DNA of 64,000 nt from a virus. Location: the IMG/VR virus record IMGVR_UViG_3300018494_000126. One strand, written 5' to 3'. The notes below the pieces were generated by a model, which saw only the letters and a list, made by a program, of their open reading frames with translations, did not search any database and was not told the DNA's origin. How positions within the stretch are numbered: the first letter of the stretch is position 1; each line of letters begins with the position of its first letter. The translations under genes and the position numbers were made by a program. Of the stretch, positions 31,500 to 61,778 are shown piece by piece.

Positions 31500-31534
31500 T
31501 CATGAAATTTTCATTTTATCAGGAGGAGAAGAAA

Positions 31535-33304: not shown

Positions 33305-34093
33305 ATGGCATATATAAAAGAATATTGGGAAAACAAAGACCAAAGAGCACAGAGAGCAAGAAAACATACTACTGAAATGCAGAAATTACACGGAGATAAA
33401 ATTACACAATCCATCAAGAATACTAAAATTTATGATACTGATTTTATATGTAACGGAGATATTGTAAACGAATTAGAAGAACCTACAAAAATCATAGTTG
33501 CAGATGCGGATACGGTTATGGCATCCGGTAAATACTCAGATGGTAAAACTGCATTACTAAATTTTTCATCATACAAGAATCCTGGTGGTATGTTTCTTAA
33601 TGGTAGTAAAGCGCAGGAAGAATGTTTGTGTCATGATTCTTACTTATATAATGTTCTATCTCAGTTTGTTAAAGATTTTTATGATTGGAATAATCAGCAT
33701 AAGAACAAAGCGTTATATTTGAATCGTGGTTTATATACCCCGAATATTGTATTTCAATATGATGGGTCTGAAATCTATCGTGACGTAATTACATGTGCAG
33801 CTCCCAACAAATCAGCGGCGCAAAAGTATCAGAATGTTTCTGATACAGAGAATACAAAAGTTTTAAAATCAAGAATTAAATTTGTACTTGATATTGCAAA
33901 GGATAATGAAGTGGAAGTACTTATCTTAGGGGCATATGGTTGTGGTGTGTTCGGACAGAATCCTGTAGAAGTCGCAATGATTTTTAAGGAGTGTTTAGAA
34001 ACAACGTATAAGAATTGTTTTAGAAAAGTTGTATTCGCAATTCCAAGTGGTAGAGATGGTAATTTAGAAGCTTTTAAATCGGTATTTGAGTAA
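33305..34093 (+). CDS. microbial PARG-like macrodomain protein (DUF2263/TIGR02452 type)
   Basis: LLNFSSYKNPGGMFLNGSKAQEECLCHDSYLY matches the bacterial PARG signature NFA.AKNPGGGFL.GA.AQEE...S.LY (GGG-X6-8-QEE). Confidence 0.7.
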   Translation: MAYIKEYWENKDQRAQRARKHTTEMQKLHGDKITQSIKNTKIYDTDFICNGDIVNELEEPTKIIVADADTVMASGKYSDGKTALLNFSSYKNPGGMFLNGSKAQEECLCHDSYLYNVLSQFVKDFYDWNNQHKNKALYLNRGLYTPNIVFQYDGSEIYRDVITCAAPNKSAAQKYQNVSDTENTKVLKSRIKFVLDIAKDNEVEVLILGAYGCGVFGQNPVEVAMIFKECLETTYKNCFRKVVFAIPSGRDGNLEAFKSVFE

Positions 34094-39735: not shown

Positions 39736-40281
39736 ATGAAAAAAATATTTTGTGTAATGGGAAGAAGCAGTAGTGGGAAGTCCACCTTGTCAAAAGAAGC
39801 AGCTAAACAGTTAGGTTTAACCATTCTTACTTCTTATACCACACGACCTCCTAGACCAGCCGAACTGGACGGTGAAACAGACCATATTTTTATTACCGAA
39901 GATGAAGTAGATAAATATCGAGATGATATTATGGCATACACCGTTATTAATGGTTATCAATATTTTTGTACATACTCTCAATTAATGGAGTGCGATATCT
40001 ACATTATTGACCCTAATGGTTATTACGAACTTAGTGAGAAAACAAAAGAATTAGATATTGAATTAATACCTATTTATATCACAGTAAGTAAAACTAAAGG
40101 AATTGAACGGGCTAAAAAAAGAAAAGATAATATTGATTCTTACTTACAACGCTATGAATCAGAAAACCAGCAATTTACCGAATTTGAAAAAAGTAACTTG
40201 ATTTGGTACAGGATTTTAAATCATGGCACTTTAGAAGAAGGAGTAGAACGTCTGGTACGAATTATTGATAAGGAGAGGTAA
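39736..40281 (+). CDS. guanylate-kinase-like P-loop kinase
   Basis: Walker A GRSSSGKST plus the SYTTRPPRPAE..G.DHIFI guanylate kinase signature; start overlaps the stop of the Crh-like gene. Confidence 0.7.
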   Translation: MKKIFCVMGRSSSGKSTLSKEAAKQLGLTILTSYTTRPPRPAELDGETDHIFITEDEVDKYRDDIMAYTVINGYQYFCTYSQLMECDIYIIDPNGYYELSEKTKELDIELIPIYITVSKTKGIERAKKRKDNIDSYLQRYESENQQFTEFEKSNLIWYRILNHGTLEEGVERLVRIIDKER

Positions 40282-40283
40282 CT

Positions 40284-40622
40284 ATGAGTAAAGGAACAAA
40301 TGAAAGTGGTACATGTGTTTCATGTGGTTATTACACAAAAACCGATTATTTAAGTCCAAAATGTGCGAATTGTCGCATGATGATAGGTTATAAAGGTGAC
40401 AATGATAATTATGAACCCCAACCAGAATCTGATAGATGGTATGCACCCTATATACCAACAGAAGCGGGATATTATGATATTACGTATTTAAACATTAATA
40501 CACAAGATATATCATATGGCACTCTATATTGGGGTGATGAGGGATGGGCATATTCAGAATTTGATGCGACTCCACTACCCGACCATATAATCATACGTAG
40601 TTTTCAAATAAAAAAAGAGTAA
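40284..40622 (+). CDS. hypothetical protein
   Basis: 112 aa, N-terminal CVSCG...C.NC. Confidence 0.45.
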   Translation: MSKGTNESGTCVSCGYYTKTDYLSPKCANCRMMIGYKGDNDNYEPQPESDRWYAPYIPTEAGYYDITYLNINTQDISYGTLYWGDEGWAYSEFDATPLPDHIIIRSFQIKKE

Positions 40623-40646
40623 ATTTATGTATCAAAGGAGGCCTGA

Positions 40647-41357
40647 ATGAGCATAAGTAGATATTTACCAACACTTCAATTAAATGAAAAAATGTATAAA
40701 ATATTGAATATTATTCTTCTTCAGGTGTTCTGGATACAATTAATTTTACGTTTTGTATTTACTCCTGTAGATATTTTACCGCATATTTCTACTTATCCGA
40801 TAGTGCAAACACGAACAGTAGAACAGTTACCGACTTTACAGGAGCTTAAACAAGTTCAAGCACAGAAAAAAATTCAAGAGTTTAATGAGTTAATTACATC
40901 ACTAGAATCAATTAAAGAATATGATAGACAAGCATATATTTTAGCATATAAAAAAGCATATCGAGACTATGATGAGTATGTTATGCCGTTTCATTCTGTC
41001 TATGATGAATATACAGATGAAGAGATTGAGTTATTCCAAAGAGCGGTAGAGACAGAAACACATGACGGCGATTTTGATTCTAAAGTTAATGTGGCCAATG
41101 TTATATTAAATAGAGTTGCTAATACAGAATTTTCGGATATTAATGGCTCTTTGAGTAAAGTTATCACTCGTAAGAATCAGTTTGCTTATCATCGTACTGA
41201 AATCGATTATTCTACAGTGTTAGCAATTGAATATGCTTTTTTATTTGAAGATACTACTGATGGTGCTTTATGGTTTGATACTGGTTTAAATAGTTGGGCT
41301 AAACGTAATAGAACATTTGTGTTTAAAGATGATATAGGACATGTGTTTTATAAATAG
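40647..41357 (+). CDS. SleB/CwlJ-like cell wall hydrolase domain protein
   Basis: C-terminal VANVILNRV...KNQF motif of the Hydrolase_2 (SleB) family; N-terminal TM segment. Confidence 0.65.
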   Translation: MSISRYLPTLQLNEKMYKILNIILLQVFWIQLILRFVFTPVDILPHISTYPIVQTRTVEQLPTLQELKQVQAQKKIQEFNELITSLESIKEYDRQAYILAYKKAYRDYDEYVMPFHSVYDEYTDEEIELFQRAVETETHDGDFDSKVNVANVILNRVANTEFSDINGSLSKVITRKNQFAYHRTEIDYSTVLAIEYAFLFEDTTDGALWFDTGLNSWAKRNRTFVFKDDIGHVFYK

Positions 41358-41562
41358 GAGTGTGATAGATATACAACGCATATTAAAGAGTAAGGAAGTA
41401 AAAGAATATTTAGGTATTGCTTCTGATAAAACACTATATAAATTATTAAATACGAAGGGGTTTCCTCAATTTAAGATTGGAAGAGATTATTATATCCCAG
41501 AAGATGATTTAATAGATTGGATAAGTAAAAATGCTAAAATGAATACGAAGATAATAATTTAG
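41341..41562 (+). CDS. xis: excisionase/AlpA-like HTH DNA-binding protein
   Basis: KEVKEYLGIASDKTLYKLLNTKGFPQFKIGRDYYIPEDDLIDWI matches the excisionase-family HTH_17 pattern. Confidence 0.6.
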   Translation: MCFINRSVIDIQRILKSKEVKEYLGIASDKTLYKLLNTKGFPQFKIGRDYYIPEDDLIDWISKNAKMNTKIII

Positions 41563-41590
41563 GGAAGATTGCATATCTTCCCTATTTTTA
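41562..41590 (+). terminator. rho-independent terminator
   Basis: GGGAAGAT-TGCAT-ATCTTCCC followed by TATTTTTA. Confidence 0.5.
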
Positions 41591-41591
41591 A

Positions 41592-41664
41592 AGCTGATGA
41601 CGGGAATCGAACCCGTGACCTCTTCACTACCAATGAAGTGCGCTACCGACTGTGCCACATCAGC
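41592..41664 (-). tRNA. tRNA-Thr (anticodon GGT)
   Basis: Reverse-complement folds as acceptor GCTGATG/CATCAGC, D-loop AGTCGGTA, anticodon stem CTTCA/TGAAG, loop TTGGTAG, T-arm ACGGG-TTCGATT-CCCGT; one A-C mismatch in D-stem. Confidence 0.75.
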
Positions 41665-41679
41665 ATATTAAGTTTCTAG

Positions 41680-41701
41680 TCTGTGTAAAAATCTGTGTAA
41701 A
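41680..41701 (+). repeat. tandem direct repeats ATCTGTGTAAA (attP arm-type-site candidates)
   Basis: GTCTGTGTAAAAATCTGTGTAAA read directly; same motif recurs at 41899-41931. Confidence 0.5.
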
Positions 41702-41865
41702 TTTTTTGAAAGAGGCTTCAAAGCCAGTGTTTATAGGCGTTTCAAAAATATAACAATAGCACTACCAATGCGTAAGACAATTTTTTAATATCTTATCAAA
41801 AAGTCTCGAAAGTGCCGTGTTTTCGGCGTTTTCGGGGCTTTTTATATTTTTCTCAATTATGTATT

Positions 41866-41931
41866 TTTAGGTATTTATAGGTATTCTTAGGTATCCTAAT
41901 CTGTGTAAAATTATGGAAAATCTGTGTAAAA
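41866..41931 (+). repeat. phased direct repeats (3x TAGGTAT at 10-bp spacing, 2x ATCTGTGTAAAA) upstream of the integrase
   Basis: TTTTTAGGTATTTATAGGTATTCTTAGGTATCCTAATCTGTGTAAAATTATGGAAAATCTGTGTAAAA. Confidence 0.5.
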
Positions 41932-41993
41932 TTGTTGAGTAATTTTTTGCCATATGTTATCCTTATATAAAGCACAAATAAGGAGGGATTCTT

Positions 41994-43391
41994 ATGGCTA
42001 AAAGAAAAAACGGAGAAGGTAATTGGGGTACTCGTACAATTAATGGTGTTCAATATAAATACTATAGAAAGTATTATGATTGGAAAGATGATTATCACAC
42101 ATTCTATGGTAAAACAGAAAAAGAAATTAATCAAAAGAGAGAACAGTTTGAATTAGTAAATAAGGATAAGCATAAATTCGATGCTAAGAATGTTAAGCAG
42201 GAAACATTCTATCATTATTGCAAGCATTGGATAGAAGATATAAAACCTAATGATGGTTCAGATACAAAACAAGTAACTATTGATTCGTATGCAGATATGT
42301 TAGACAATCGAATTAAAGATACATTTCTGGGTAATACTCAAATTGCTTCATTAAGCGAAGATATTTTCCAAGATTATATAGATGATTATTGTGTAAAGCA
42401 AAAAGAATATTCGAGAGGTACAATTAAAAGAACGCAATCGTTATTAAATCAGATTTGCGAGTATATGTATGAAACAGATAAGTATGCTCCATGTAATTAT
42501 ATGGAAGACATCATCATTCCTTCTGAAAAGAACGTAAAAACCAAAAGGCGTAAAGTACCATTCTTAGAAGAATCAGATATGTTAAAACTCTATGATGAGT
42601 TTCAAAAAATGCATAGTACTGGTAGAAACAAATATGGACTAAATGCTCATATGGTTATATTTATCATGTATACTGGTTTGCGTATATCTGAGGCTCTTGC
42701 ACTTAAATGGAAGGATGTTAATTTAGACCTAAACATCATTACAATAACGCACGTTATTGCAAAAATAAGAAATCCAAAGGGTGATAAACCCAAACATATT
42801 TATGTAGATACAGATGGTACTAAAACATATTCTAGCGAGCGCAGCATTCCATTATCAGACATTGCTTTATTAATTCTTAAAGGTTTATGGAAAAACCAAG
42901 ACCCTAATTATTATGTTTTCACTGAGGATGGGGTTACAATTAGCAATCATAGTAATGTTACACGCACTTTAAACCTTATGCAAAAGAATGCAAATTGCAA
43001 GATAAAGAAAAGTGGATTACATTCTTTAAGACACACATTTGGTTCTTATTTGATACTTAAAGGCGTTGATATTAAGACTGTCAGTGAGTTATTAGGACAC
43101 TCTAGTATAGAAATTACGTTAAATATATATGTTCATATTATTAATGCTCAAAAAGCATCTGCTATCAAATTATTTAACAATGTTCAAAAGCAAGTAAATA
43201 CTACTCCTATAGGAGTAGTAGAATCATTGAGCAAAATGGGTATTTCACTAATAGAGATAGAAGAAGGAATGCTTGGCTATATTGAAAATGGAAAACTTGT
43301 TAAGCTTCCTATAAATAAAACTCTTGCAATTAATGATATTATAATTAACAATATAGACATATATAATGAATATTACAAAAGCGAGGAATAG
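41994..43391 (+). CDS. int: tyrosine integrase (large phage-type, N-terminal arm-binding domain)
   Basis: Box I YTGLRISEALAL; box II LHSLRHTFGSYL...LLGHSSIEITLNIYVH. Confidence 0.85.
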   Translation: MAKRKNGEGNWGTRTINGVQYKYYRKYYDWKDDYHTFYGKTEKEINQKREQFELVNKDKHKFDAKNVKQETFYHYCKHWIEDIKPNDGSDTKQVTIDSYADMLDNRIKDTFLGNTQIASLSEDIFQDYIDDYCVKQKEYSRGTIKRTQSLLNQICEYMYETDKYAPCNYMEDIIIPSEKNVKTKRRKVPFLEESDMLKLYDEFQKMHSTGRNKYGLNAHMVIFIMYTGLRISEALALKWKDVNLDLNIITITHVIAKIRNPKGDKPKHIYVDTDGTKTYSSERSIPLSDIALLILKGLWKNQDPNYYVFTEDGVTISNHSNVTRTLNLMQKNANCKIKKSGLHSLRHTFGSYLILKGVDIKTVSELLGHSSIEITLNIYVHIINAQKASAIKLFNNVQKQVNTTPIGVVESLSKMGISLIEIEEGMLGYIENGKLVKLPINKTLAINDIIINNIDIYNEYYKSEE

Positions 43392-43544
43392 TATGAAACT
43401 CACAATAATTAGAATAGAAGAGAATATAGTGACTTGTGAACTGGAAGATGGACAACTGTTAGATGTGGCCCGTAAATGGTTTGCCTCAAATATCACAACA
43501 GGTGATGTAATGGATATAGATGTGACAAAAGTGGAGGGTAAATA

Positions 43545-44252
43545 ATGGCTCGCATCAAAGAAACTAAAATGAAAGAAATACAACACATAGCAATTGGTAT
43601 GTTGCACGTAGACCCAGTACCAGTTGGTTCATTTGGTGATTTATTTGTGTCACATCCATTCTTTACAACTTCTGCCTTATTTAGCGCAAATAATGGACAA
43701 ATGTTTAATCTGTTTGAAGATGAAAATTCTTTTTATGAATATAAAAAAGAAATGGAGCAAGTAATCAAAAGTAGACCTGATGTATTCAGTCTCGCCATGT
43801 TCATTACAACTCCATATAAACTTACTTTCTTTAAATATATTCATGACTATTTATCTGAAAAAGATTTTGGTGAATTGCTGTCAGAGCTATATGTACAAAT
43901 GGAAGTGATTTGTGATGAAACAAATGTTACTCGTCGTGAATTATTAGGATGGTTTAAAAAAGCCAAAAAAGAATATTTAATGGACGAAGACGAATTACGG
44001 TTCTTAGAAAACTTGGATGAAGAAGTAACTATTTATAGAGGAGTTCGTGACCCTAAATATAAAAATGGTTTCTCTTGGACAACAAACTATAATACAGCCA
44101 AATGGTTTGCTGAAAGATATCAAATGGGCACACCAATTATATTAAAGGGTAAAGTACAAAAAGATGCTATATTATGCTATTTAAACGCGCGTAATGAGCA
44201 TGAAATCGTCGTAAATCCTAAAAAGGTAAATTATATCGTCCTCGATTTTTAA
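43545..44252 (+). CDS. hypothetical protein
   Basis: 235-aa ORF with AGTGGAGGGTAAATAATG ribosome-binding site; no recognised motif. Confidence 0.5.
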   Translation: MARIKETKMKEIQHIAIGMLHVDPVPVGSFGDLFVSHPFFTTSALFSANNGQMFNLFEDENSFYEYKKEMEQVIKSRPDVFSLAMFITTPYKLTFFKYIHDYLSEKDFGELLSELYVQMEVICDETNVTRRELLGWFKKAKKEYLMDEDELRFLENLDEEVTIYRGVRDPKYKNGFSWTTNYNTAKWFAERYQMGTPIILKGKVQKDAILCYLNARNEHEIVVNPKKVNYIVLDF

Positions 44253-44271
44253 TGGATAAAAGCATACTTTT

Positions 44272-44310
44272 AACGCCTATGATTATGTAATTGTAGGCGT
44301 TATTTTTATT
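44272..44310 (+). terminator. rho-independent terminator
   Basis: AACGCCTAT...GTAGGCGTT stem then ATTTTTATT. Confidence 0.5.
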
Positions 44311-44446
44311 ACTAAGCAGAAGTTTAACGGCACTTTCAGAGTGGAAAACGATTGATATTAACTACAAATTTACAACAGTTAGTACAAATTGGGTTAGCAT
44401 AGGAACTTACCCTGAATTAATTAATTGTAAAGAAGCATATGTAAAT

Positions 44447-44650
44447 ATGAGTAATTATCATCATTTATTATTTAATAATGGAACTTCTGCTAGCGCTTCA
44501 ATTTTTACTATGAGTACACAAAATGACTCGAGATATTTTGCTGAATCACAAGCAAAAATACACTTCGATACTGGTCTGGTAGAAGCAAGACAAACAACTA
44601 AAGGTGATGATACTGGTTATAGAACATTTATTGCAATTTATTACCGATAA
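44447..44650 (+). CDS. hypothetical protein
   Basis: 67-aa ORF. Confidence 0.3.
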   Translation: MSNYHHLLFNNGTSASASIFTMSTQNDSRYFAESQAKIHFDTGLVEARQTTKGDDTGYRTFIAIYYR

Positions 44651-44678
44651 ATAATTATTGTTTAATTTCGACAGTTTA

Positions 44679-44942
44679 TCAGTCTGTTGTTTTTGTATAT
44701 CTTAAAACAACAATAAATTCACCAGACATTTTAGATTTCATCATAAGTTTGTATCTTGCAAATGAAATATACGGAACACAAAGATTCTCCTCATCAAAAT
44801 AACTTGGAAGTGGATTTGCTACCGTACCACTTGCTGCCGTTTTTATAATTGTTCCCGCAATTGATATTACATTTTCAATATTTAACGCCGATACATCATT
44901 GTGTTCTTCATTTGACCCACTTCCTGTGGAAGTACCAGTCAA
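44679..44942 (-). CDS. hypothetical protein
   Basis: 87-aa ORF on minus strand. Confidence 0.35.
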   Translation of the reverse strand: MTGTSTGSGSNEEHNDVSALNIENVISIAGTIIKTAASGTVANPLPSYFDEENLCVPYISFARYKLMMKSKMSGEFIVVLRYTKTTD

Positions 44943-45085
44943 AACTATTTCATATAATGGTTTTCCTAAGAATGTACCGATTTTTTGTTCTGTTGAATTT
45001 AAAGAAGTAATGTTTTGTAAACTTCTGCATATTCGACTCGATTTATATGCATACTAAATGCAAATCGTGCAAAGGAGATAATGAA

Positions 45086-45754
45086 ATGAACGCTTCTTAT
45101 ATAACCACTATACGGTTTCAAACTTTACAAATCCCAGTAAAAATGATGAAAGTTAACTGTGATAATAGTATTGAATTAAATCAATTATGTAAAGATTCTA
45201 AGGAAAGAGTGAGATACCATAAATATTGTCCTTCATGTAAGAAAGAAATTACAAACGAAGATATTGTAAAAGGTTATCAATATGCGAAAGATAAATATGT
45301 TGTATTGGAACAAACTGAAATTGATTCAATTACTACCGAACAGGATAAACAATTAACTGTAAGTTATTTTTGCAAATCTAAAGAAATAGGAGATTTATTA
45401 ATTTATAAATCTTATTATTTAGTACCTGATATGCAATCTGAAGAAAGATATGATTTATTTAGAAAGGCATTAATTGCGAATAAAGTGATAGCCATAGCTG
45501 AAATGGTTTTAGGTAATCAACAGAGATTAATTGCTTTATTTCCAAATAAAAGATGTATTGTAGCAACAATTCTATTTTACGAAAATGAAATCAACGAACT
45601 CCCATTGATTGCGTCACACAAACATCATAGACATGAGTTAGCAACTTTACAAACCCTGATTTCCACTTATACACATGAATTTGATTGGTCAACTCATTAT
45701 GATAAATATCAAACCAAATTGCGTAATTTAATTCAAAAAAAGATAAAACAATAA
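45086..45754 (+). CDS. ku: Ku-like DNA end-binding protein (bacterial NHEJ Ku / Mu Gam family)
   Basis: IPVKMMKV...RVRYHKYCPSCKKEITNEDIVKGYQYAKDKYVVLEQTE and KSYYLVPD...IAIAEMVLGNQQRLIALF align along the length of B. subtilis YkoV (IPIKLY...IKYEKVCTNCEK..DEIVKGYEYVKGKYVVL, RSYFVGPG...IGIANMTIRSKQQLAIL); start taken at the ATG after AAAGGAG. Confidence 0.8.
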   Translation: MNASYITTIRFQTLQIPVKMMKVNCDNSIELNQLCKDSKERVRYHKYCPSCKKEITNEDIVKGYQYAKDKYVVLEQTEIDSITTEQDKQLTVSYFCKSKEIGDLLIYKSYYLVPDMQSEERYDLFRKALIANKVIAIAEMVLGNQQRLIALFPNKRCIVATILFYENEINELPLIASHKHHRHELATLQTLISTYTHEFDWSTHYDKYQTKLRNLIQKKIKQ

Positions 45755-45762
45755 TCCGTTTG

Positions 45763-45800
45763 CGTAAAAAAATAGGGAGACATATAGTCTCCCTAATTAC
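45763..45800. terminator. bidirectional terminator between convergent arms
   Basis: AGGGAGAC-ATAT-GTCTCCCT flanked by A-run and T-run; sits where plus-strand and minus-strand transcription converge. Confidence 0.55.
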
Positions 45801-45991
45801 ATAATTTTATTTAATATTAATTGGAACATGAAAGTATTATCAGGCGTATATAATGTTACCTTTCCAGAGTTCAAATCATAAAATGATTCAATGATTTGTG
45901 GGCTTGTATTTCTGATTTCCATAATATAATCTTGCGCTTTTACCGCACCTTGATGTGTTTGAATATACTCTTTAATTTCTATATCAGTCAT
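45797..45991 (-). CDS. hypothetical protein
   Basis: 64-aa ORF. Confidence 0.35.
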   Translation of the reverse strand: MTDIEIKEYIQTHQGAVKAQDYIMEIRNTSPQIIESFYDLNSGKVTLYTPDNTFMFQLILNKIM

Positions 45992-45992
45992 T

Positions 45993-46535
45993 TTAGTCTT
46001 TTATTTGTAGATTACGCATTACGGGTTCAATATCATGCTTTACAAACGAGTTACCCCCATGTGTAATATATCTATCATATAATCCCCAAAATGTATCTGC
46101 TTCAAAACGTTCCCATTCTCCAAGGTCTTTATATTTACGATAATAACCTAAGATTTTATCTTTTAATTTGGCCATCTCGGTGGCATCTATTTTAGCTTCC
46201 ATGTCACTTAAACGTACTACCACTTCACGTATAGTGGATGTTAATTCTTTAATATCGTCACGAATCATTTCATCGTGACGAATTGATTGTTTTGTATCTT
46301 CTTCGTGTTTATTATGTAAAGCAGTTAAATCTTGGATTGTCTGCATTAATAACTCATGGTCTTCATCTTTCTTACTTACCCACTTCACTGGTTTTTTAAT
46401 AATTTTAGAAAATTTACCAATAATTTCATACACAGCAATACAAAAAGCCATTAAAATAAAAATACTCAAGATAATATTGCCAAAATCTTGAGCTAAAAAT
46501 TCTTTAACTGTATTAATAAAATTCATTGTGTTCAT
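45993..46535 (-). CDS. membrane-anchored coiled-coil protein (lysis-associated?)
   Basis: N-terminal TM segment FGNIILSIFILMAFCIAVY then coiled-coil; directly downstream of the endolysin. Confidence 0.45.
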   Translation of the reverse strand: MNTMNFINTVKEFLAQDFGNIILSIFILMAFCIAVYEIIGKFSKIIKKPVKWVSKKDEDHELLMQTIQDLTALHNKHEEDTKQSIRHDEMIRDDIKELTSTIREVVVRLSDMEAKIDATEMAKLKDKILGYYRKYKDLGEWERFEADTFWGLYDRYITHGGNSFVKHDIEPVMRNLQIKD

Positions 46536-46570
46536 TTAATAATTTACCATTTCATATCTTATGCCTTTCT

Positions 46571-48019
46571 TTATAGTCCGTGTATATATTCAGCAGACAC
46601 CCAACCGCCTATTGAATCATATACCGTGTAATACCATCCTTTTTTCTCCTTTAACAGAGGAATAATAGTATTCCTCGGTATGTTCCCTATATCTGCATAA
46701 TTAGTTCCTGCGCCTTTACGTATATTTAATATATTTGCATTCACAATACCTCGTGTTGACTGAATATAAGTAGCAGATACCCATTGGTTTATACCAATCC
46801 TGTAAAATCCGTCTTGATAATTTGAAATGTCTACTTCATCACCATTGTAGAGTTTCCCCTTTATATCTCCATTAGGTTTATTACGAACATTAAGAGTTGT
46901 ATCCACTCGTACAATATTTTTGATTACTGGAGAGGAAGATAAAGTGGAAGTGTTATAAAGAATATTTAAGTCTACAGAGCCTTGAATACCAGAAACTTGA
47001 CCTGAACTTGTGTATTGATACCCTTCAATTGGAGTGCCAATATTCGGTTTACTGCTTTCTTCTGGATTTTCTGCAAATTGCATAGGTGAATATCCCTTTT
47101 TATATCTAGCAATCCACTCTACATTACACTTTAAACTGGATTTATATGGTTTAATATACGAATTCCAGAAAGATAACCCTGTGTAAAGTCCGAATTTATA
47201 ACCAGCCTTTTCAATTACTTCTTGATAAGCATTAATCATATCAATAAGTAACTGACCCAACCCTTTCTGACAATTATCTTCAACGTCCATATAAATCACT
47301 GTAGATTTTGGCATATTAAACTGTTTTAAGTATTTAACCACAATAGAAGCATCAGACCGTGATTTAGCAACTGATGTGGCGTATGAATAATTATAAACCC
47401 CAATGATAGGTAAATTTACTTTGTTAAAACCTTTCAAGTGAGTTTCAAACAGTTTATCTAAATTCAAATCCTTACGAATGATTTTTAGAATTGCAAACTG
47501 TACACCATCATTTTTAACTGCTTGATAGTCAGTTATTTTATTATAACCAGAAACATCAACGCCCTTAATAGTGGATGGGGTAGGAGTGTTTTCTACATAT
47601 CTCAAATGGTAAGTCCATTTATAACTTGGAGTATAAAAACTTCGGCAACAAATCTCTTTTCCCGTCTGGTCACCAACTTGCCCGTTCTTAATAGTTCCTT
47701 TTTCATTCAAACTAGCATGTACAATGTTATTTGCATCCGTACACATTACTACATGTTTTCCTGCTGTTAAGAAAATATCCCCACGCTTCCGAGCCTCATT
47801 AACTCCAATTTCTTTAAAACCACAATCAATCAACTGTTTATATAAAGTCCTTGTTGTGCTTAAAGGATTTACTTTAAATCCAGCTTTTGACAAGGCTGTA
47901 CCTACAAGAGAAGAGCAATCATAATCAGGAGAGCCATTTCTATTATCTTGAGCATAGCCGTGGCTATTATCAGCAGCAATTTGCTCCATAAATTGTACCG
48001 CTTTTTCTATCTTTGACAT
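46571..48019 (-). CDS. multi-domain endolysin: NlpC/P60-CHAP-like peptidase + GH25 muramidase + 2x SH3b
   Basis: GYAQDNRNGSPDYDCSSLV (Cys peptidase), GVDVSGYNKITDYQAVKNDGVQFAILKI (GH25), two C-terminal SH3b-like repeats (...GWVSAEYI). Confidence 0.85.
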   Translation of the reverse strand: MSKIEKAVQFMEQIAADNSHGYAQDNRNGSPDYDCSSLVGTALSKAGFKVNPLSTTRTLYKQLIDCGFKEIGVNEARKRGDIFLTAGKHVVMCTDANNIVHASLNEKGTIKNGQVGDQTGKEICCRSFYTPSYKWTYHLRYVENTPTPSTIKGVDVSGYNKITDYQAVKNDGVQFAILKIIRKDLNLDKLFETHLKGFNKVNLPIIGVYNYSYATSVAKSRSDASIVVKYLKQFNMPKSTVIYMDVEDNCQKGLGQLLIDMINAYQEVIEKAGYKFGLYTGLSFWNSYIKPYKSSLKCNVEWIARYKKGYSPMQFAENPEESSKPNIGTPIEGYQYTSSGQVSGIQGSVDLNILYNTSTLSSSPVIKNIVRVDTTLNVRNKPNGDIKGKLYNGDEVDISNYQDGFYRIGINQWVSATYIQSTRGIVNANILNIRKGAGTNYADIGNIPRNTIIPLLKEKKGWYYTVYDSIGGWVSAEYIHGL

Positions 48020-48063
48020 AATTGTTCCTCCTTTTTTAATAATAGAAGAGAGTAGGGGTTAAC

Positions 48064-48876
48064 CTACTCTCCATAATATTTTTCTTTATATTCTTTAAAT
48101 TTCATATCCATTACATAATCGCAAATTACATACACATCATCCATAAATGGGTATTCAGATGGAAGATAAGCATGACCATCACCAAGATTGCCCCAATTTG
48201 CATTCCAGCTGTTCTTAATGCGCCAATAGAATTTACCATCAATTTCACACCAGCCATCAATTACGATTGCGTGTCCACCTTGATTTTCTTGACCTTTTAC
48301 ATAATGGATAATACCGTTTTCATCAGGTGTATAGAAACATTCATAAACAGGAACACCAATTAAAACCGCCTTAGTTTCCATAATCGCAACTTGAATTTCT
48401 TTACGATTTCTACAAGTATAAAAACTACTGATTTTAAATGGTTCTGCTTTTTCAAGTAATTCTTTTTTACGAGATAAAAATTCATTCTTTGAACCGAAAT
48501 AAGTGTTAGGATATTTCATTTCTCCCCAAACAACAGAACCTTCACGCCCCTTTTTACAACATGAACGTAAATACATACCTTCAAAATCTTCGCCATCAAT
48601 ACGATTCGCATATGTAAATGATGGACAAAATGGAACAGTAATTTCAGACTGTTCTTTATCTTTTTCTTGTAAAAATCTAATATAATTATAGGCCGAAGCG
48701 CAGCACTGAGAACTATTTTCTTGGTCATATGTAAATCCTGCATCTGGTGTAAAATATTCTTTTGGAATTTCATATGCCCTCATAGGAACTGCATCACCAA
48801 AGCGATAATCTCTTGAGTCATATGGAGACTGCAAAAGTTTTAAGTGCTGACCATATTTCTCTTTATAATCAATCAT
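48064..48876 (-). CDS. papain-like (C1-type) cysteine peptidase
   Basis: SSQCCASAYNY (catalytic Cys region) and C-terminal IKNSWNANWGNLGDGHAY (papain NSWG..WG..GY motif). Confidence 0.6.
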   Translation of the reverse strand: MIDYKEKYGQHLKLLQSPYDSRDYRFGDAVPMRAYEIPKEYFTPDAGFTYDQENSSQCCASAYNYIRFLQEKDKEQSEITVPFCPSFTYANRIDGEDFEGMYLRSCCKKGREGSVVWGEMKYPNTYFGSKNEFLSRKKELLEKAEPFKISSFYTCRNRKEIQVAIMETKAVLIGVPVYECFYTPDENGIIHYVKGQENQGGHAIVIDGWCEIDGKFYWRIKNSWNANWGNLGDGHAYLPSEYPFMDDVYVICDYVMDMKFKEYKEKYYGE

Positions 48877-48887
48877 AAAGACACCTC

Positions 48888-49217
48888 TTATTTTAAAAGT
48901 CTTTCCTTAATTTCATCCACAGAAATAGATTTTGCTTTACCTCTCACAGCAGTAGAAGCCACTTTTTCTTTATCATCTACTACAGTCACACCACCGAGTT
49001 CTTCTAACAAAATAACGATAAAGTTGGTAAATAAGTTTACAGCTTCTTTTGAAACACCATTTTTCACCAACTCAATAATTACTGCAAATACAGCAATGAG
49101 GGCAGATAAAATAGCAGCATCTGTACCTTCTTTGGTAGCAAGTGTCGCTAAAATACTAGAGATAGCACCAAGGGCGATAAGTAATTCAGATTTGTATTTT
49201 TTAATTAATTCTTTCAT
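48888..49217 (-). CDS. putative holin
   Basis: 109 aa, two or three TM segments, charged C-terminal tail, located between lysin/peptidase and membrane proteins. Confidence 0.5.
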   Translation of the reverse strand: MKELIKKYKSELLIALGAISSILATLATKEGTDAAILSALIAVFAVIIELVKNGVSKEAVNLFTNFIVILLEELGGVTVVDDKEKVASTAVRGKAKSISVDEIKERLLK

Positions 49218-49231
49218 AATTTTTCTCCTTT

Positions 49232-49720
49232 TTATCCTACGGATTCTTCATCCGATTCTACAATTGGTTTTGTTACTGCATATGTGCGTTTAATACGTTC
49301 CATTTCTATTTCATTTTTCTTTTGGGCATTTGTCTCAAAAAATGCCTTTAGCATATAGCCTAGACCTATAGCTACAATCTCAGTAATTATAGCAATACCA
49401 AGTGTTTCAGCAATTTGGTCTTTACCAAGAAAAGCTAGTACAAAACAAAATTGCACATCAATCAATGAAACAGTAAGAATAATATCCACCCATTTTTTTG
49501 TATATTGCTTAACTTTCTTTCTATCTTTTTCAGAAAGATTATCATCAACTAAATCAACGTCCAACACATCTGTCTTATCATCAATATTAATAATCGTAGC
49601 ATCAGGTCTGATAAAATGAGTAGAACCGTAAGCAACTTGTTTACGACAAAACCAATTCTTTATTTTGTTCCAAATTTTCTTTATCCAAGACATAAGTTCA
49701 CCTCCTAAAGAACAGTGCAT
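49232..49720 (-). CDS. membrane protein (lysis cassette)
   Basis: Central TM segments; position in lysis cassette. Confidence 0.45.
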   Translation of the reverse strand: MHCSLGGELMSWIKKIWNKIKNWFCRKQVAYGSTHFIRPDATIINIDDKTDVLDVDLVDDNLSEKDRKKVKQYTKKWVDIILTVSLIDVQFCFVLAFLGKDQIAETLGIAIITEIVAIGLGYMLKAFFETNAQKKNEIEMERIKRTYAVTKPIVESDEESVG

Positions 49721-50172
49721 TTACGTTTTGGCATTTTCCATATTAAATTACCCCATATGTAATATCGTGGTTGTGAACCTTTATGTAACCAGTAATAACA
49801 TATAGCGTCGTGGCAAAATACAACTATAAACCCAAAGAAGAACCAAATAATTGAGAACGGTAGACATATCTTGCCATTAAAATAATTAAATGGAAGAGTG
49901 GAATAGTCCCACATGTTTAGATGTAAGTAGTAATAATCCAATGTACCGAATACCATTTCAATACATGTGGTCATTAAACTAATCAAAAAACACTGTAGGG
50001 TTAAATCCATCTTCCATGAAAAACGGTCATTAAGTAGACCGCCGCATACAAAAATTATTCCTCCCGCCAAGGCCATTAGACGGAAGGAATAACCTCTATA
50101 AAATATTTCTATAAATGTATAGGCAGAAGAGCCTATTAAAAATAATAATAATAATTCTAATTTGTTTTTCAT
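49705..50172 (-). CDS. polytopic membrane protein
   Basis: Four or five hydrophobic helices. Confidence 0.45.
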   Translation of the reverse strand: MKNKLELLLLFLIGSSAYTFIEIFYRGYSFRLMALAGGIIFVCGGLLNDRFSWKMDLTLQCFLISLMTTCIEMVFGTLDYYYLHLNMWDYSTLPFNYFNGKICLPFSIIWFFFGFIVVFCHDAICYYWLHKGSQPRYYIWGNLIWKMPKRKCTVL

Positions 50173-50246
50173 AAAGCTCTCCTTTATGTTTACTTATTAT
50201 TTAGCAGTTTACATATACCTTTTATCATCAAAAACATCATACTTAT

Positions 50247-50561
50247 ATGAACAGAAGTTTACAGAATCTAATGATGTTTGATACTGAAAACTTTATTGAA
50301 ATAAAAAATATTGCTTCTGGTGGAATAACTGGAACGTACACTGTGCCAGATAATACTGTTGGAATGTTAAAAGTTTATGCCAGTTTGTCGGCAAATACAT
50401 CTTTTTATGTAAATATTAACGGTTACTCAGTTAAAAAAATACAGACTGGTGAAAATAGTTTCTGGATACATGACTTAATCCCATTAGTTGTTCACAGTGG
50501 AGATGTTATTGACTACAAAGCACCAGCCGCATTTACGCTTCATTTATTACCGAGAAAATAG
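50247..50561 (+). CDS. small beta-rich protein, TYTVP-family paralog (antisense to late operon)
   Basis: GITGTYTVPDNTVGMLKV shared with 53010 and 54067 ORFs; no obvious ribosome-binding site. Confidence 0.45.
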   Translation: MNRSLQNLMMFDTENFIEIKNIASGGITGTYTVPDNTVGMLKVYASLSANTSFYVNINGYSVKKIQTGENSFWIHDLIPLVVHSGDVIDYKAPAAFTLHLLPRK

Positions 50562-50576
50562 ATAACTTCTGAAAAT

Positions 50577-51077
50577 TTACCTTAATCCAATTTTATAAAC
50601 AGTGCTACTAGATTCAAAATTATTTGTTTTTACAACATCACCAGCCTTGCAACGTATTGGTGAGAATGTAAGTGAAATACCTTCTCCAACTAAAGCATTA
50701 ACGACGTAAGTGTTAATGCTTACTTGTTGATTTTTTGTACTCTTATTCATATAAGTCCTTATATAACAATCTTCTGTAAGTGTAACGGTTGTATTTGTTC
50801 CGTCTATAATTTTTTCACGATTAGCAAAGTCTGGTGCTAAACTTCTGTTCAAATCACTAACTACCGTTGCATCAGCAGCATATCCAGTTTCAGTTACGTT
50901 TGTACTGGTAGTAATTCCTTTAACAGAACCTAAATTAGTTTCCAAATTGTTATTTGCATCTTCACCATCACCAAATAGAATATCTTTTGCCTTAGTGATA
51001 AATGAATACCATTTCCAGCCCGTAGCTGTTTTTTGTCTATATTTCTTTCCATCTACGCTTGTTTCATTAATAGCCAT
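50577..51077 (-). CDS. small tail-associated protein, same paralog family
   Basis: N-terminal VDGKKYRQKTATGWKWYSF; C-terminal VNALVGEGIS similar to INAVVGDTIS of the 53353 ORF. Confidence 0.5.
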   Translation of the reverse strand: MAINETSVDGKKYRQKTATGWKWYSFITKAKDILFGDGEDANNNLETNLGSVKGITTSTNVTETGYAADATVVSDLNRSLAPDFANREKIIDGTNTTVTLTEDCYIRTYMNKSTKNQQVSINTYVVNALVGEGISLTFSPIRCKAGDVVKTNNFESSSTVYKIGLR

Positions 51078-51110
51078 AAGATGTTCTCCTTTCTAAATTA
51101 AAAGAAGCCA

Positions 51111-51611
51111 TTAAGTAAATTCCTCAATGGCTTCATAAATATCGTTCTCACAAATTAAAGTGAGTGTTTTGTTATCTACATCAACACTGCAATTACTATC
51201 ATTAATAACAGCAATAGTAGAATCTAATGTAGCTTCTTCTAATTTTAATACATATTTATCAATTGGGTAACCCCCACCTAACCAAAATTCTCCCTCTGCT
51301 ATATTATCAGGAGGAATCAATTCTCTAAAAAAATGTGGATTTGTTTTAGTCTTTTTTGCTACATGGTTTTGTAATGTAGAAACTCTATTTTCAATTGCAT
51401 TTAAAAAGCAAGCAAATAGACCACTAATACCTTCTTGATTATTAATGTAATTAGAAGCGCGTGTATATTGACCAAGTGATATATATTTCTGAAACTGGTT
51501 CATAATATCAATTTGGTCAATTGTGACATCCTGAAAAAAGATATTGTTATCTATTTTATCAGGATAGAATGAATCTGGGGAACATAACATTATTAAATAC
51601 CCCCAATCCAC
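51111..51611 (-). CDS. hypothetical late protein
   Basis: 166-aa ORF in late operon. Confidence 0.5.
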   Translation of the reverse strand: MDWGYLIMLCSPDSFYPDKIDNNIFFQDVTIDQIDIMNQFQKYISLGQYTRASNYINNQEGISGLFACFLNAIENRVSTLQNHVAKKTKTNPHFFRELIPPDNIAEGEFWLGGGYPIDKYVLKLEEATLDSTIAVINDSNCSVDVDNKTLTLICENDIYEAIEEFT

Positions 51612-51922
51612 ACATCATTTTCATTTGCTATCGGCTCATCTGCGCCAGAATGCACACATTGTTGAGCAGCTCTTGCAAAAATTTGAGTATTATGAACTTC
51701 TTCTTCAATAGTTCTAAACCATTCACTACCAACCGCTCGATTAATAAGACGGTCGCTATTTTCTCGTTCAAGTTTAGCGGCCTCTCCAAATTTTCCAGCC
51801 TGACGTAGTGATTCAATTTCATTCACTAAAGCGGCTACTTCATCAGTAACATCCTGAAAATTATGCAAAGTAATTAAACCTTTAGCGGGAAAGTTGGCAT
51901 ATTCATATTGATAACTTGCCAT
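51593..51922 (-). CDS. hypothetical late protein (XkdW-like size and position)
   Basis: 109-aa ORF following the tail protein. Confidence 0.45.
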   Translation of the reverse strand: MASYQYEYANFPAKGLITLHNFQDVTDEVAALVNEIESLRQAGKFGEAAKLERENSDRLINRAVGSEWFRTIEEEVHNTQIFARAAQQCVHSGADEPIANENDVWIGGI

Positions 51923-51952
51923 CTCTAACTCCTTTCTAGTGGATTAATTCGC

Positions 51953-52828
51953 TTACATAACACTTGCGTAATAATCTGCCAATACTTCTGACTGATATTC
52001 TTCAGGAATTAATACACCATATGTAATAGCTTCAACTTCTTCTTTAGAAGCAAGACTTCTAATATAAATTCGTAAGTCGCGGAAATAAGTTACATGGTAC
52101 ATTACCCATGTATAAGCAGCTGTAGAAATCAAAGCCATATCTTCATCACTAAAATAACGGCAGTGAACGCTTTCATCTGCAATATGCCAAGGCGTTCCTT
52201 TTTCAAACATACCTTGTACAGATACAGAACCCATAACGCTTAACTGGTCATTAGTTGTTAATGAGAATCTATGAGTTGTTCCATCTGTTAAAGTAACATC
52301 AACACCATCTGCAATAATTGCTTGCTGTGTGTTATTCATTTCTGCGACTTTACGTTCAATAACAGAAGAGAGTGGTTCGTTGTAAACAAATACTGCTGTA
52401 AATGTCTGAGATGCACCAATCTTACCCTCTGTAGGAATAGCGGGTGTCCATTCAACAAACTCATAATTTTCATTCGCAACAGGAGTTGGGATAATGAGTT
52501 CTGAATAATTTTCTACAACCTGAGAAGTATTTCCTTTTAAATTACCACCATTACCAGCAGAAAACGAAACAGTAATAGGTGGTTCAACATAGAAACTACC
52601 ATCTAAAGATAATTGATAAGAACGTTCATTAAGAACTTTATATAAAGTGGTGGCATTATGATATTTGTCACCACCAACTTTCGCATTTTGATTTACATCT
52701 AAAAAACAGTCAAAACCATTTAAGTTAGGTTCGACTTCTTTATTAAAAGTTAATGTGACGATTGCACCTGAAACACTAGCGATGGCTTCATGTACACAAT
52801 CTTCATTCAAAAATTTAACATAAGTCAT
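51953..52828 (-). CDS. tail protein with Listeria-Bacteroides-type repeat
   Basis: NENYEFVEWTPAIPTEGKIGASQTFTAVF resembles the Flg_new/InlB B-repeat. Confidence 0.55.
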   Translation of the reverse strand: MTYVKFLNEDCVHEAIASVSGAIVTLTFNKEVEPNLNGFDCFLDVNQNAKVGGDKYHNATTLYKVLNERSYQLSLDGSFYVEPPITVSFSAGNGGNLKGNTSQVVENYSELIIPTPVANENYEFVEWTPAIPTEGKIGASQTFTAVFVYNEPLSSVIERKVAEMNNTQQAIIADGVDVTLTDGTTHRFSLTTNDQLSVMGSVSVQGMFEKGTPWHIADESVHCRYFSDEDMALISTAAYTWVMYHVTYFRDLRIYIRSLASKEEVEAITYGVLIPEEYQSEVLADYYASVM

Positions 52829-53009
52829 AATTCTTTTTTTCCTTTCTAAAAGAATAGTGCGGGTATTAAACCCGCGTTTGGTGTTTATAAAAAATGTTGT
52901 GAGTTAACAAAATAGAATAATATACGTCAGAAGTTTAGGCGGTCTAACATTCGGTTATGACAGTACAAGTGAAAAATATGGCTATTACAAAAAGGAGGCT
53001 GACACAGAT

Positions 53010-53330
53010 GTGTTTGTCCCTTTTAAGTCAAGTGAATGTGAAACAGTAATCTCATATGTGCAAGGCGGCGATAATAAGTCTACAGAAAAAACATACACCG
53101 TTCCATCAGACGGTACATTAAATATTATCGGCATGTTAATACCTGCTGCATATACAATTTGTAAAGTTAATGATATTCAACAGAACATACATACAACATC
53201 TAATACATATTGCAGATTACAAGGAACAATATCAGTGAAAAAAGACGATGTTGTATATATAAAATATGGAAATGGAACAACAACAGGCAGTACTTGTTGT
53301 TGTGTTTCTGCATATTTTATAGCTGATTAA
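53010..53330 (+). CDS. small beta-rich protein, TYTVP-family paralog
   Basis: KTYTVPSDGTLNIIGML; AAAGGAGG ribosome-binding site upstream; GTG start. Confidence 0.45.
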   Translation: MFVPFKSSECETVISYVQGGDNKSTEKTYTVPSDGTLNIIGMLIPAAYTICKVNDIQQNIHTTSNTYCRLQGTISVKKDDVVYIKYGNGTTTGSTCCCVSAYFIAD

Positions 53331-53352
53331 ATGTTCTTTGTTAGTAATTGGT

Positions 53353-53841
53353 TTACTTTGACACTGAGTTCATCCATGTGGCTAAATCATTTATAATTGT
53401 GGTTTCTTCGTTTGTAATTAAATAAACCCTTAATGCTTGCTTGGGATAACCTTTTGTACTAGGTGTTTTGGCAGAAATGGTATCACCAACAACTGCATTT
53501 ATCATAAACGACTTTGTTTTATATGCACCTTGTTTAATAAACGCAACAGCATATGTTCCAAGCGCAGTTTCGTTATGAACGATTTGCCCTTCTGAATATG
53601 TACCACCCTCGCCACTATAACTTGACACCTTTCCGATAAGTGCCAAAGTACAGTCTTTTTTTACTGTTAAAACTTTATTTGTGGAATCCATAGAAAGGTA
53701 CTCATCAAATAATTCTCCCTTTATCACTTCTGATGATAATGTGGCAACATGTATAGTATCTGAAGGACTTGTTTCCATTCCACTGAATAATAACAATTCA
53801 TCACTACCACCATTAAATTTTTTCCATTCAGACCAGCCCAT
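53353..53841 (-). CDS. small tail-associated protein, same paralog family
   Basis: GWSEWKKFNGGSDELLLF N-terminus; KVLTVKKDCTLALIG resembles the TYTVPSDGTLNIIG motif. Confidence 0.5.
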   Translation of the reverse strand: MGWSEWKKFNGGSDELLLFSGMETSPSDTIHVATLSSEVIKGELFDEYLSMDSTNKVLTVKKDCTLALIGKVSSYSGEGGTYSEGQIVHNETALGTYAVAFIKQGAYKTKSFMINAVVGDTISAKTPSTKGYPKQALRVYLITNEETTIINDLATWMNSVSK

Positions 53842-53843
53842 AT

Positions 53844-54128
53844 TTACACCCCACTTTCTTCGGTGTAAACAGAGTAATATAATTCACCGTCTGTTACTTG
53901 GAACTTAACTTGTCCATTTGCTAAACTTCTGAAAGAGTTTTTATGGTTTTTCCGTAAAATAACAATTTTATGCAGAAGTTTAGGTGGATTTTCATTTAAA
54001 ACTGTAGACGGTAAAAAGCAGGTATCAACAGATGGTGGAGAAACATGGTCAAATTTTAGCGGTGGGTTGGATTTACTATGGACGAATCCTAACCCGACAA
54101 GTGCATTTAATGCACAAACATTGTCCAT
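53844..54128 (-). CDS. doubtful ORF overlapping the open upstream frame of 54067(+)
   Basis: 94 aa; overlaps a plus-strand open frame that encodes family-like sequence, so one of the two is probably not expressed. Confidence 0.25.
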   Translation of the reverse strand: MDNVCALNALVGLGFVHSKSNPPLKFDHVSPPSVDTCFLPSTVLNENPPKLLHKIVILRKNHKNSFRSLANGQVKFQVTDGELYYSVYTEESGV

Positions 54129-54426
54129 AGATTTAAGTGGTTATGAAAGCGTGGTTATACAGGCAAAAGGCTGGAACGCAACAGAAACATATACACCATT
54201 AAAAACACTTATACCAAAAGACGGTAAACCTTATGCAATATGTGGTAATCAAGCAAATTATACCGAAAAGGGAGAAATCAGCGAGAGTTTTGGAATGTAT
54301 GTACGATTGGTAACAGTTAATGATGATGGAATTACATTTACAACTGCACATACAAGTTTATCTAATACAAATAATCAAGCCTGTATACCACTTGAAATTT
54401 ACGGTTGCGGTATAAGTTTGGAGTAA
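54067..54426 (+). CDS. small beta-rich protein, paralog (start uncertain)
   Basis: TETYTPLKTLIP motif. In-frame upstream ~190 nt is open with no ATG/GTG and encodes VDGKKQVSTDGGETWSNFSGGLDLLW, similar to N-termini of the 50577 and 53353 ORFs. Confidence 0.4.
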   Translation: MDLLWTNPNPTSAFNAQTLSIDLSGYESVVIQAKGWNATETYTPLKTLIPKDGKPYAICGNQANYTEKGEISESFGMYVRLVTVNDDGITFTTAHTSLSNTNNQACIPLEIYGCGISLE

Positions 54427-54526
54427 ACTAACATGATAACTTTAACATTATTATTTATATGGTTTTTCTGTATGAGCATTATTGAGTATGGAGATTGCAG
54501 ATAAACTGCCAACTATTTTCGCACGG

Positions 54527-54808
54527 TTAATTTAATTGGTTAATACCTTTTGCAATATAAACAATACATTTATTAATCGAACTTGTAGAAGACCACCTTT
54601 GATACGATGCGGTTATTGTTAAAATTCCTGTACTTGCATTATAAGTTTTACTATACGTCACAGTTGTATTAGATGAACTATTTGGGGTTTGGTCTGACGT
54701 AGGCTCATATATTAAATTGTCAACAGTCAAATTCATATAATCAGCATAATATGGACTAATATCAAGGTCTATTTGTTTTGCAGATGTTCTTTGTATAGAT
54801 GAAAACAC
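54527..54808 (-). CDS. small beta-rich protein, paralog (GTG start)
   Basis: KTYNASTGILTITASY resembles the TYTVP motif; frame open upstream to a stop with no ATG. Confidence 0.4.
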   Translation of the reverse strand: MFSSIQRTSAKQIDLDISPYYADYMNLTVDNLIYEPTSDQTPNSSSNTTVTYSKTYNASTGILTITASYQRWSSTSSINKCIVYIAKGINQLN

Positions 54809-54969
54809 TATGCTATATATACCACTAAAAGGGGTTACTGTATCAGCACCGCTTGGAATATAACCCCAATTTCCTTCCGAATCTTGTGCAAATGTAAGTC
54901 CGCCTAAACTTCTGTAAAAATATTCATGATTTCTTACACAAACACATTAAACTTAACTTTCGATTTGTA

Positions 54970-55033
54970 TCATATTAAAAACACACAATATATAGTGAAC
55001 ACAATCCCTAATAAACACTATATATTGTGTGTG
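54970..55033 (-). terminator. rho-independent terminator after tail-fiber gene
   Basis: Perfect 17-bp inverted repeat ACACACAATATATAGTG / CACTATATATTGTGTGT followed on the minus strand by TTTTAATATG. Confidence 0.55.
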
Positions 55034-55089
55034 ATATTGTTTAAAACTATCCTTTCATTGCCATTTTACTGACGAGGGTTATGCTATTG

Positions 55090-56493: not shown

Positions 56494-56645
56494 AATTTTC
56501 TTTCACCTCTTTCTTAATTTTCTGGGATTGTTGTCAACCCCATTGTCCGAGGTTGTATATTAAAAGTCCCCTTGCAACCGATTAAGGTTACAAGGGGTTT
56601 GTATTGTTTATTGTTTGTTCTCTTGTTAGAGTGGTTATGTTATTG

Positions 56646-59258: not shown

Positions 59259-59275
59259 TTCTGACTCCTTTCCAA

Positions 59276-60262: not shown

Positions 60263-60276
60263 TATCTCACCCCCAT

Positions 60277-60747: not shown

Positions 60748-60760
60748 TTGTCATTTCCTC

Positions 60761-61600: not shown

Positions 61601-61778
61601 TGGAATATTAAGAATGGTATTGTCATTACAACGGAATACAATACACCTAGTATCACCGTCATATGTAGCAGTGGATACACCAGTAGCAACACCTTTTATT
61701 TTTTTTAAAAGTAAACTATATGTAATAATGTCGATGATGATGCACCGCCTTTCTTTAGTATTTTATATATTATTTTAT

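Follow-up and report, generated by a model that had tools for sequence, protein, structure and literature searches.

A 64-kb stretch of viral DNA (the whole of the 64,000 nucleotides analysed here, hereafter the window) encodes a genuine but minimal Ku protein, and this identification is secure. The protein belongs to the same family, by profile and by fold, as the bacterial Ku proteins of B. subtilis (YkoV) and M. tuberculosis (Rv0937c), and differs from them in that it is phage-encoded, has no adjoining LigD or ligase gene and is missing the C-terminal arm, i.e., the conserved helix and the basic tail that follow the core. It is a distinct form of Ku that naturally lacks the arm, not a system of a new type, and is carried by a phage lineage and in a host group in which Ku was not previously present in the isolate phage records or the literature searched. 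As to its function, the best reading of our analysis, to which we give a probability of about one half, is that the protein acts as a Gam-like protector or bridge of phage DNA ends.

The open reading frame at 45086–45754 encodes 222 amino acids and a stop codon. The original prediction had placed a phage-encoded Ku homolog at exactly these coordinates and all of the motifs that it quoted are present; the profile search that it proposed recovered the Ku family (PF02735, E=2.9e-36, 125.6 bits with a cutoff of 25). The NCBIfam equivalog for bacterial Ku (TIGR02772, Ku_bact) was matched at 194.4 bits (cutoff 150) and PHROG 4873, annotated as Ku-like DNA end binding, at E=1.3e-29, and a sequence search of the PDB returned the Ku proteins of B. 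subtilis (E=1e-28) and M. tuberculosis (E=2e-21). A longer reading frame beginning at 45047 was considered and set aside: the start is placed at 45086 because the sequence AGGAG lies 8 nt before this ATG, and ribosome-binding site and start codon are conserved in 37/37 distinct homologous upstream regions. The coordinates of the features of the locus are collected in Table 1.

Table 1. Features of the Ku locus and its surroundings, in positions of the window
Feature	Position	Strand	Description
HTH_17 excisionase-like ORF	41341-41562		HTH_17 domain match
tRNA-Thr(GGT), probable attP core	41592..41664	-	ARAGORN; between excisionase-like ORF and integrase
Tyrosine integrase	41994..43391	+	PF00589 E=1.9e-24; phrog_1 E=1.5e-61
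Terminator closing upstream integrase operon	44271..44302	+	14-pair stem, then T-run
Variable spacer	44303..45018	.	716 bp; ORFs 44447-44650 (+) and 44679-44942 (-)
Ku upstream region, probably promoter and 5' UTR	45019..45085	+	starts at left homology edge with closest relative, L002
Shine-Dalgarno AGGAG	45073..45077	+	8 nt before ATG at 45086; conserved in all aligned homologous upstream regions
Ku CDS	45086..45754	+	core-only: beta-barrel, bridge, C-terminal helices; without C-terminal arm
Hairpin terminator	45773..45795	.	9-bp stem, 5 GC pairs; between converging Ku and lysis arm
Converging end of late arm	45797..48876	-	two small ORFs, endolysin 46571-48019, papain-like peptidase 48064-48876

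To model the protein with AF2, an alignment of 112 sequences was used in place of a shallow one of 18 sequences, with which pLDDT had reached only 36.8. The resulting monomer model has a mean pLDDT of 95.8 and a pTM of 0.83, and contains the Ku core fold, i.e., a beta-barrel with bridge and pillar together with a helical region. When this model was searched with Foldseek, the best matches were the bacterial Ku-DNA complexes 9vnq, 9i91 and 8v53 (TM 0.84–0.86, E down to 8e-19), with eukaryotic Ku70/80 ranking next. On the top structural match, the complex of the B. subtilis Ku core with DNA (9vnq), all 222 residues of the phage protein superpose with a TM of 0.86 and 29–30% identity. In a fold search of BFVD, two Ku clusters were the only significant matches. 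In the phage Ku clade, basic residues and the segment IELNQLCKDSKER of the bridge do not vary, which is consistent with, and not proof of, a homodimeric ring on double-stranded DNA ends. Weak Pfam Zn-ribbon matches were also seen at residues 23–55 of the protein; the conserved cysteines there are C35, C48 and C51 only, and a single CxxC is common in bacterial Ku.

Similarity to bacterial Ku had been described as full-length. This is correct for the whole of the phage protein, while on the bacterial side it extends over the core only (model positions 6–227 of 259). Against B. subtilis Ku, of which the crystallised core comprises 227 aa, the phage protein aligns as far as residue 225 of that core, and against M. 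tuberculosis Ku as far as about native residue 227. In 105/112 full-length relatives a tail of more than 10 aa (median 44 aa) continues beyond the last residue of the phage protein; a relaxed pattern search found a helix motif resembling L-M-x-A-L-x-x-S-L in 85 of these 105 tailed proteins, usually followed by a basic tail, and B. subtilis Ku has a C-terminal tail too. The phage clade, by comparison, ends uniformly in KIKQ or KIPK. In B. subtilis Ku the arm lies beyond residue 253, includes a helix at about residues 260–265 and recruits LigD, whereas a core without the arm can still load on ends and bridge them, with a long-lived synapsis where these have 4-nt complementary overhangs (PMC7969030). 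Because the phage protein is without this arm, it probably does not carry out canonical Ku-LigD end joining. Loss of the arm does not by itself settle the matter of ligase coupling, since a Ku truncated at its C-terminus continues to stimulate the LigD of Pseudomonas (PMC7969030).

Compared with the isolate phage records, the phage Ku has few and distant relatives. Matches were found in 87 of 50,697 records, namely 86 mycobacteriophages, the only phage group represented, and one record named 'Bacteriophage', all at no more than 24% identity, and a megablast of positions 40000–50000 against isolate phages gave no match. A published survey lists 11 phages with Ku (PMC8136500). The expectation that Ku is rare in phages is thus borne out among isolates and does not extend to uncultured phages, where the tail-less form is conserved in a large SPbeta-like gut group. 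A large protein collection yielded 468 homologues at E <= 0.001; the best 120 of these, as 90%-identity clusters, are all 222–230 aa long and 64–96% identical to the query. In IMG/VR there are 52 Ku loci, mostly on contigs of ~75–160 kb, and one Ku copy lies on a 421-kb contig of Coprococcus ammoniilyticus. Among 1.84 billion cluster representatives, the phage clade (at least 64% identity) forms a single cluster, to which a cluster of 225 aa at 46% is sister; the relatives that follow are 35–40% identical and 238–280 aa long.

Tail-less Ku occurs in two further lineages of gut SPbeta-like phages, at 46–68% identity. The related contigs are SPbeta-like as well, with YonB, YonD, YonG and terminase domains, and when their 10-kb flanks were compared with the window, Ku was all that they had in common apart from two weak matches. 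In these related phages Ku is the lone + strand gene, antisense to its neighbours inside a - strand tRNA array, and is flanked by a YonG-terminase-portal operon on one side and, on the other, by genes that include a Xer-like recombinase and an HU homologue. The third lineage, with a Ku of 225 aa and 46% identity, has the same tRNA-array arrangement. From this distribution and arrangement over three lineages we infer that Ku is old in the SPbeta-like group and that, in the phage to which the window belongs, it has relocated. In the related phages of 100–160 kb the tRNA arrays around Ku were mapped, for example, at 9578–11979 of L057, 9829–12018 of L014 and 9686–11521 of L055, and the nearest tRNA ends ~55–175 bp before the Ku start. 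In some relatives the interval from Ku to the YonG-terminase operon contains endonuclease genes of the HNH or GIY-YIG type (L119, 7158–7655; L058, 8286–9299); these could be homing endonucleases or packaging-associated HNH proteins, which would bear on whether genome ends are of the cos or the pac type.

Between the window Ku and the 96%-identical protein of L002, dN/dS is 0.15, and within the larger clade it is 0.05. The gene is therefore under purifying selection, and it is functional and important to the phage. This has to be set against the idea that it is a decaying, non-functional remnant of a captured host Ku. The phage protein is shorter than most Ku proteins, and another apparently core-only Ku (P0131; 227 aa, 36% identity) has an aberrant C-terminus with a Transposase_mut gene directly after it (L121, 103–2015); this gene was probably truncated by an IS and is then not short by nature. 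A remnant is nevertheless contradicted by the conservation data: in addition to the low dN/dS, the ribosome-binding site is conserved, the protein ends at the same point across the best 120 homologue clusters and the three lineages, and the AF2 model is complete and confident over the whole core. We consider decay of a captured gene extremely improbable.

The window has a GC content of 32% and is phage throughout. It belongs to a temperate, SPbeta-like phage of ~131.5 kb whose host is a low-GC member of the gut Clostridia; the identical Ku protein is present on at least 24 metagenome contigs, the longest of which measures 131,507 bp. The + strand arm (1–45754) contains SPbeta-type genes for lysogeny control and replication. 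Among them are a YopP-like tyrosine recombinase, an MrpR-like repressor, YorF, a Sak4-like AAA_24 protein, a DnaB-type helicase, a gene in the primase position, a PD-(D/E)XK nuclease, a split PolIII-alpha, RecD2, a split anaerobic ribonucleotide reductase, a dUTPase and a guanylate kinase. The - strand arm (45797–64000) carries endolysin, peptidase and tail-fibre genes; the terminase is encoded beyond the window. With SPbeta itself the carrier shares YopP/MrpR-like, YorF, YorG/Sak4-like, YorI, YorJ and YorL genes and their order, SPbeta YorL being 37.5% identical to the N-terminal part of the split PolIII-alpha, and the two genomes are of similar size (134 kb for SPbeta, 131.5 kb for the carrier). 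They differ in that the Ku query matched no Bacillus phage record, SPbeta included, and in that SPbeta has an ATP-dependent ligase-like gene, LigB/YoqV, of which no counterpart was seen in the region of the carrier that is syntenic with SPbeta.

Several other features of the carrier were observed. The gene of the anaerobic ribonucleotide reductase, NrdD, is split into an N-terminal ORF (26841–28046) and a C-terminal ORF (28932–29852), with an HNH_3 endonuclease ORF (28120–28761) between them, an interruption that looks like a homing-endonuclease intron or an intein-type insertion. The YorL-like PolIII-alpha occupies two ORFs (19147–21636 and 21922–23310) that lie 285 bp apart, where SPbeta yorL is a single 3.9-kb gene. 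The arm for replication and nucleotide metabolism also encodes a DUF488-N3a protein (31502–31912) and an SPFH/Band-7 membrane protein (18122–19042). Besides the integrase at 41994, three more genes of the tyrosine-recombinase type are present, i.e., the YopP-like gene and the MrpR-like repressor (4263–6300), the latter with both MrpR domains, and a Xer-like gene (63558–64000 and beyond); this last gene, of 335 aa, runs off the right end of the window (L117, 6183–7190).

Ku is the last gene on the + strand and the - strand genes begin at 45797, which places it, as anticipated, at the convergence of two transcription arms. The terminators expected on its two sides are also there (44271–44302 and the hairpin at 45773–45795); the hairpin is flanked by an A-run and a T-run, one on each side, and was scored on the - strand. 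Because the terminator at 44271–44302 closes the integrase operon, Ku is predicted to be a self-contained transcription unit. Upstream of the gene, at 45050–45058, lies the motif CATACTAAA, the core of which, ATACTAA, is shared before Ku by three divergent phage lineages, with CAyATACTAA in most loci of the clade. In a consensus sigma-70 scan no + strand site was found directly upstream of Ku, and the ATACTAA motif did not match the consensus of the scan. We considered the motif as a marker of a phage-wide promoter class and rejected this, as, in most of the loci checked, no other gene is preceded by it, and it occurs essentially only upstream of Ku.

Colinearity with L002 begins at 45019, 67 bp before the Ku start. 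This sharp homology boundary is a recombination breakpoint, which leaves the upstream motif of Ku intact. To its left, the spacer is replaced in L002 by unrelated sequence (1–824) that includes fragments of fibre-like ORFs; the two short ORFs of the window's own spacer gave no family match. Between the integrase and Ku, a 235-aa ORF (43545–44252) matched PHROG 4776 only, a family of unknown function (E=3e-40), and its C-terminal half shows an R / S-x-T / E-x-E pattern that, by eye, may be ADP-ribosyltransferase-like. The phage also encodes a microbial PARG-domain protein (33305–34093).

Ku had been described as lying next to the integrase/attP junction, which applies only loosely: the integrase ends 1.7 kb upstream of Ku, and the likely attP is 3.4 kb away, beyond the integrase. 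A position for attP in the gap immediately before Ku was considered and abandoned in favour of the tRNA-Thr gene beside the integrase. This tRNA gene is likely to be the attP core because the excisionase-like ORF, the tRNA and the integrase follow in a row, two independent metagenome contigs (L115 and L116) end inside the tRNA, and repeats are found nearby, with four copies of TCTGTGTAAAA and three of TAGGTAT between the tRNA and the integrase gene.

We further analyzed the locus for a ligase partner. Domain and profile searches detected no ligase or LigD domain in the 64-kb window, in agreement with the original prediction that LigD is absent from it, and there was no ligase, primase-polymerase or phosphoesterase domain in the window or in flanks of 6.7 kb and 9.3 kb on its two sides; in all, about 84 kb of the ~131.5-kb phage was examined. 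The closest non-phage relatives among plasmid records, the Ku proteins of Clostridia plasmids (34–36% identity, 270–273 aa), by contrast adjoin LigD or a ligase-family gene. An IMG/VR search with SPbeta LigB returned only close LigB relatives (most 78–100% identical), none of them on Ku-bearing contigs, so that it carries no weight either way. Nothing relevant was found in a literature search for NHEJ or LigD in Lachnospiraceae.

The missing arm and the lack of a linked ligase bear on whether the phage protein could work as Ku does in the mycobacteriophages Omega and Corndog, i.e., bind the two ends of the injected genome and recruit host LigD or another host ligase for circularisation. No other role is known to have been established by experiment for a full phage-encoded Ku, and Pitcher et al. 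reportedly described this one for a mycobacteriophage Ku in 2006. Short cos ends and dependence on host LigD are known for phages of the Omega/Corndog type. The mycobacteriophage proteins (Omega gp206, Corndog gp87; clusters J and O) resemble the present one in being Ku proteins of large temperate siphophage-type genomes; they are only 23–24% identical to it, and host phylum and phage lineage differ. Omega gp206, of 282 aa, keeps the C-terminal motif DVSGLLAKLEASV and the tail, both of which are missing here. Since the whole of the arm that B. subtilis Ku needs is absent, recruitment of LigD is disfavoured. Moreover, the SPbeta relatives studied package by headful from concatemers, with pac and terminal redundancy, and not with short cos ends (bioRxiv 10.1101/2021.11.22.469490), packaging of the pac type is likely here too, the phage's own annealase and nuclease are available for recombinational circularisation, and no ligase is linked to Ku in the region examined. 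On the other hand, the Ku core alone can hold 4-nt cohesive ends in the long-lived synapsis described above, Mu Gam is able, together with E. coli ligase, to promote the joining of ends according to work cited in PMC8136500, and Ku adjoins the YonG-terminase-portal operon in two related lineages, one of which has an HNH gene nearby. Taken together, we regard ligase-dependent circularisation as quite unlikely for this protein.

The position of the gene raises another explanation, namely that it is an accessory gene ('moron') expressed from the prophage, with a role in superinfection exclusion, where it could cap the genome ends of incoming phages, in tolerance of double-strand breaks by the host, or as an arm-less decoy that would occupy ends and so block error-prone host NHEJ. 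That Ku stands by itself between terminators, preceded by a conserved motif of its own, would suit such a gene, as would its integrase-proximal place in the prophage, 3.4 kb from the att site, the variation of its position among lineages and the mosaic breakpoint 67 bp upstream of its start. Together with the lone antisense placement within the tRNA array of the related phages, the position near the integrase looks like that of a lysogen-expressed accessory gene, and this speaks against end protection. Imprecise repair of cos by host NHEJ is reported to be harmful to a mycobacteriophage (PMC12848934), which makes an anti-NHEJ decoy conceivable; the decoy form, however, presupposes a Ku/LigD system in the host. 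When Ku and its immediate neighbours were submitted to PADLOC, no match to a defence system was found except a weak hit (E=0.005) to a 180-aa ORF downstream, so that no known defence context was seen. The conservation over three deeply diverged lineages, in addition, points to a gene that serves the phage's own cycle and not to dispensable cargo. An accessory role of this sort is therefore, in our estimate, unlikely.

Protection or bridging of phage DNA ends in the manner of Gam fits the biology of the phage because SPbeta-type headful packaging from concatemers exposes free ends. Lambda and Mu cover free DNA ends with Gam-type proteins. Mu Gam provides the functional model for the phage Ku: it is short, arm-less, phage-encoded and of Ku ancestry, and it shields double-stranded ends from exonucleases. 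It is cited as a Ku homologue in PMC8136500. The present protein differs from it in having a full Ku core of the bacterial type and in not belonging to the Gam sequence family; neither its Pfam hits at E<=1 nor its significant fold matches in BFVD include Gam. By analogy, the phage Ku would form a homodimeric ring like that of the bacterial Ku core and of Mu Gam. Such a ring could thread onto the double-stranded ends of linear phage DNA, whether of the injected virion genome or of the tails of replicating and packaging concatemers, where it would protect the ends against AddAB/RecBCD-type exonucleases of the host, and it might hold two DNA ends together. Sealing of the ends would then be left to recombination, or to a ligase that works independently of a Ku arm; the Sak4-like annealase and the PD-(D/E)XK nuclease of the phage could support recombination or closure.

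Two roles had been put forward for this gene at the outset. End protection stands as plausible, by reasoning from the core fold and phage biology, and recruitment of host LigD is the one that the missing arm disfavours. A point against end protection is that an end-bound Ku could hinder the resection needed for the phage's own recombination. In a more specialised form of the Gam-like reading, which we hold to be possible but doubtful, the arm-less Ku may have been uncoupled from ligation and become a dedicated end cap for counter-defence, either against AddAB-type nucleases or as a decoy against host Ku/LigD. If this is true, a Gam-like function would have been reached separately from Mu Gam, out of a bacterial-type Ku.

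To our knowledge, studies of Ku encoded by phages have been limited to the mycobacteriophages and, in the form of its distant relative Gam, to Mu. The present gene adds a tail-less Ku that is conserved under purifying selection in SPbeta-like phages of many metagenomes, one relative being integrated in Coprococcus. What a Ku core does in the absence of its ligase-recruiting arm can be studied here as a natural experiment. As a compact end binder from a phage of anaerobes the protein may be of use as a tool, in the way that Gam serves for labelling or protecting DNA ends, and it is a candidate anti-nuclease or end-management factor in phages of Clostridia, where such factors are poorly known.
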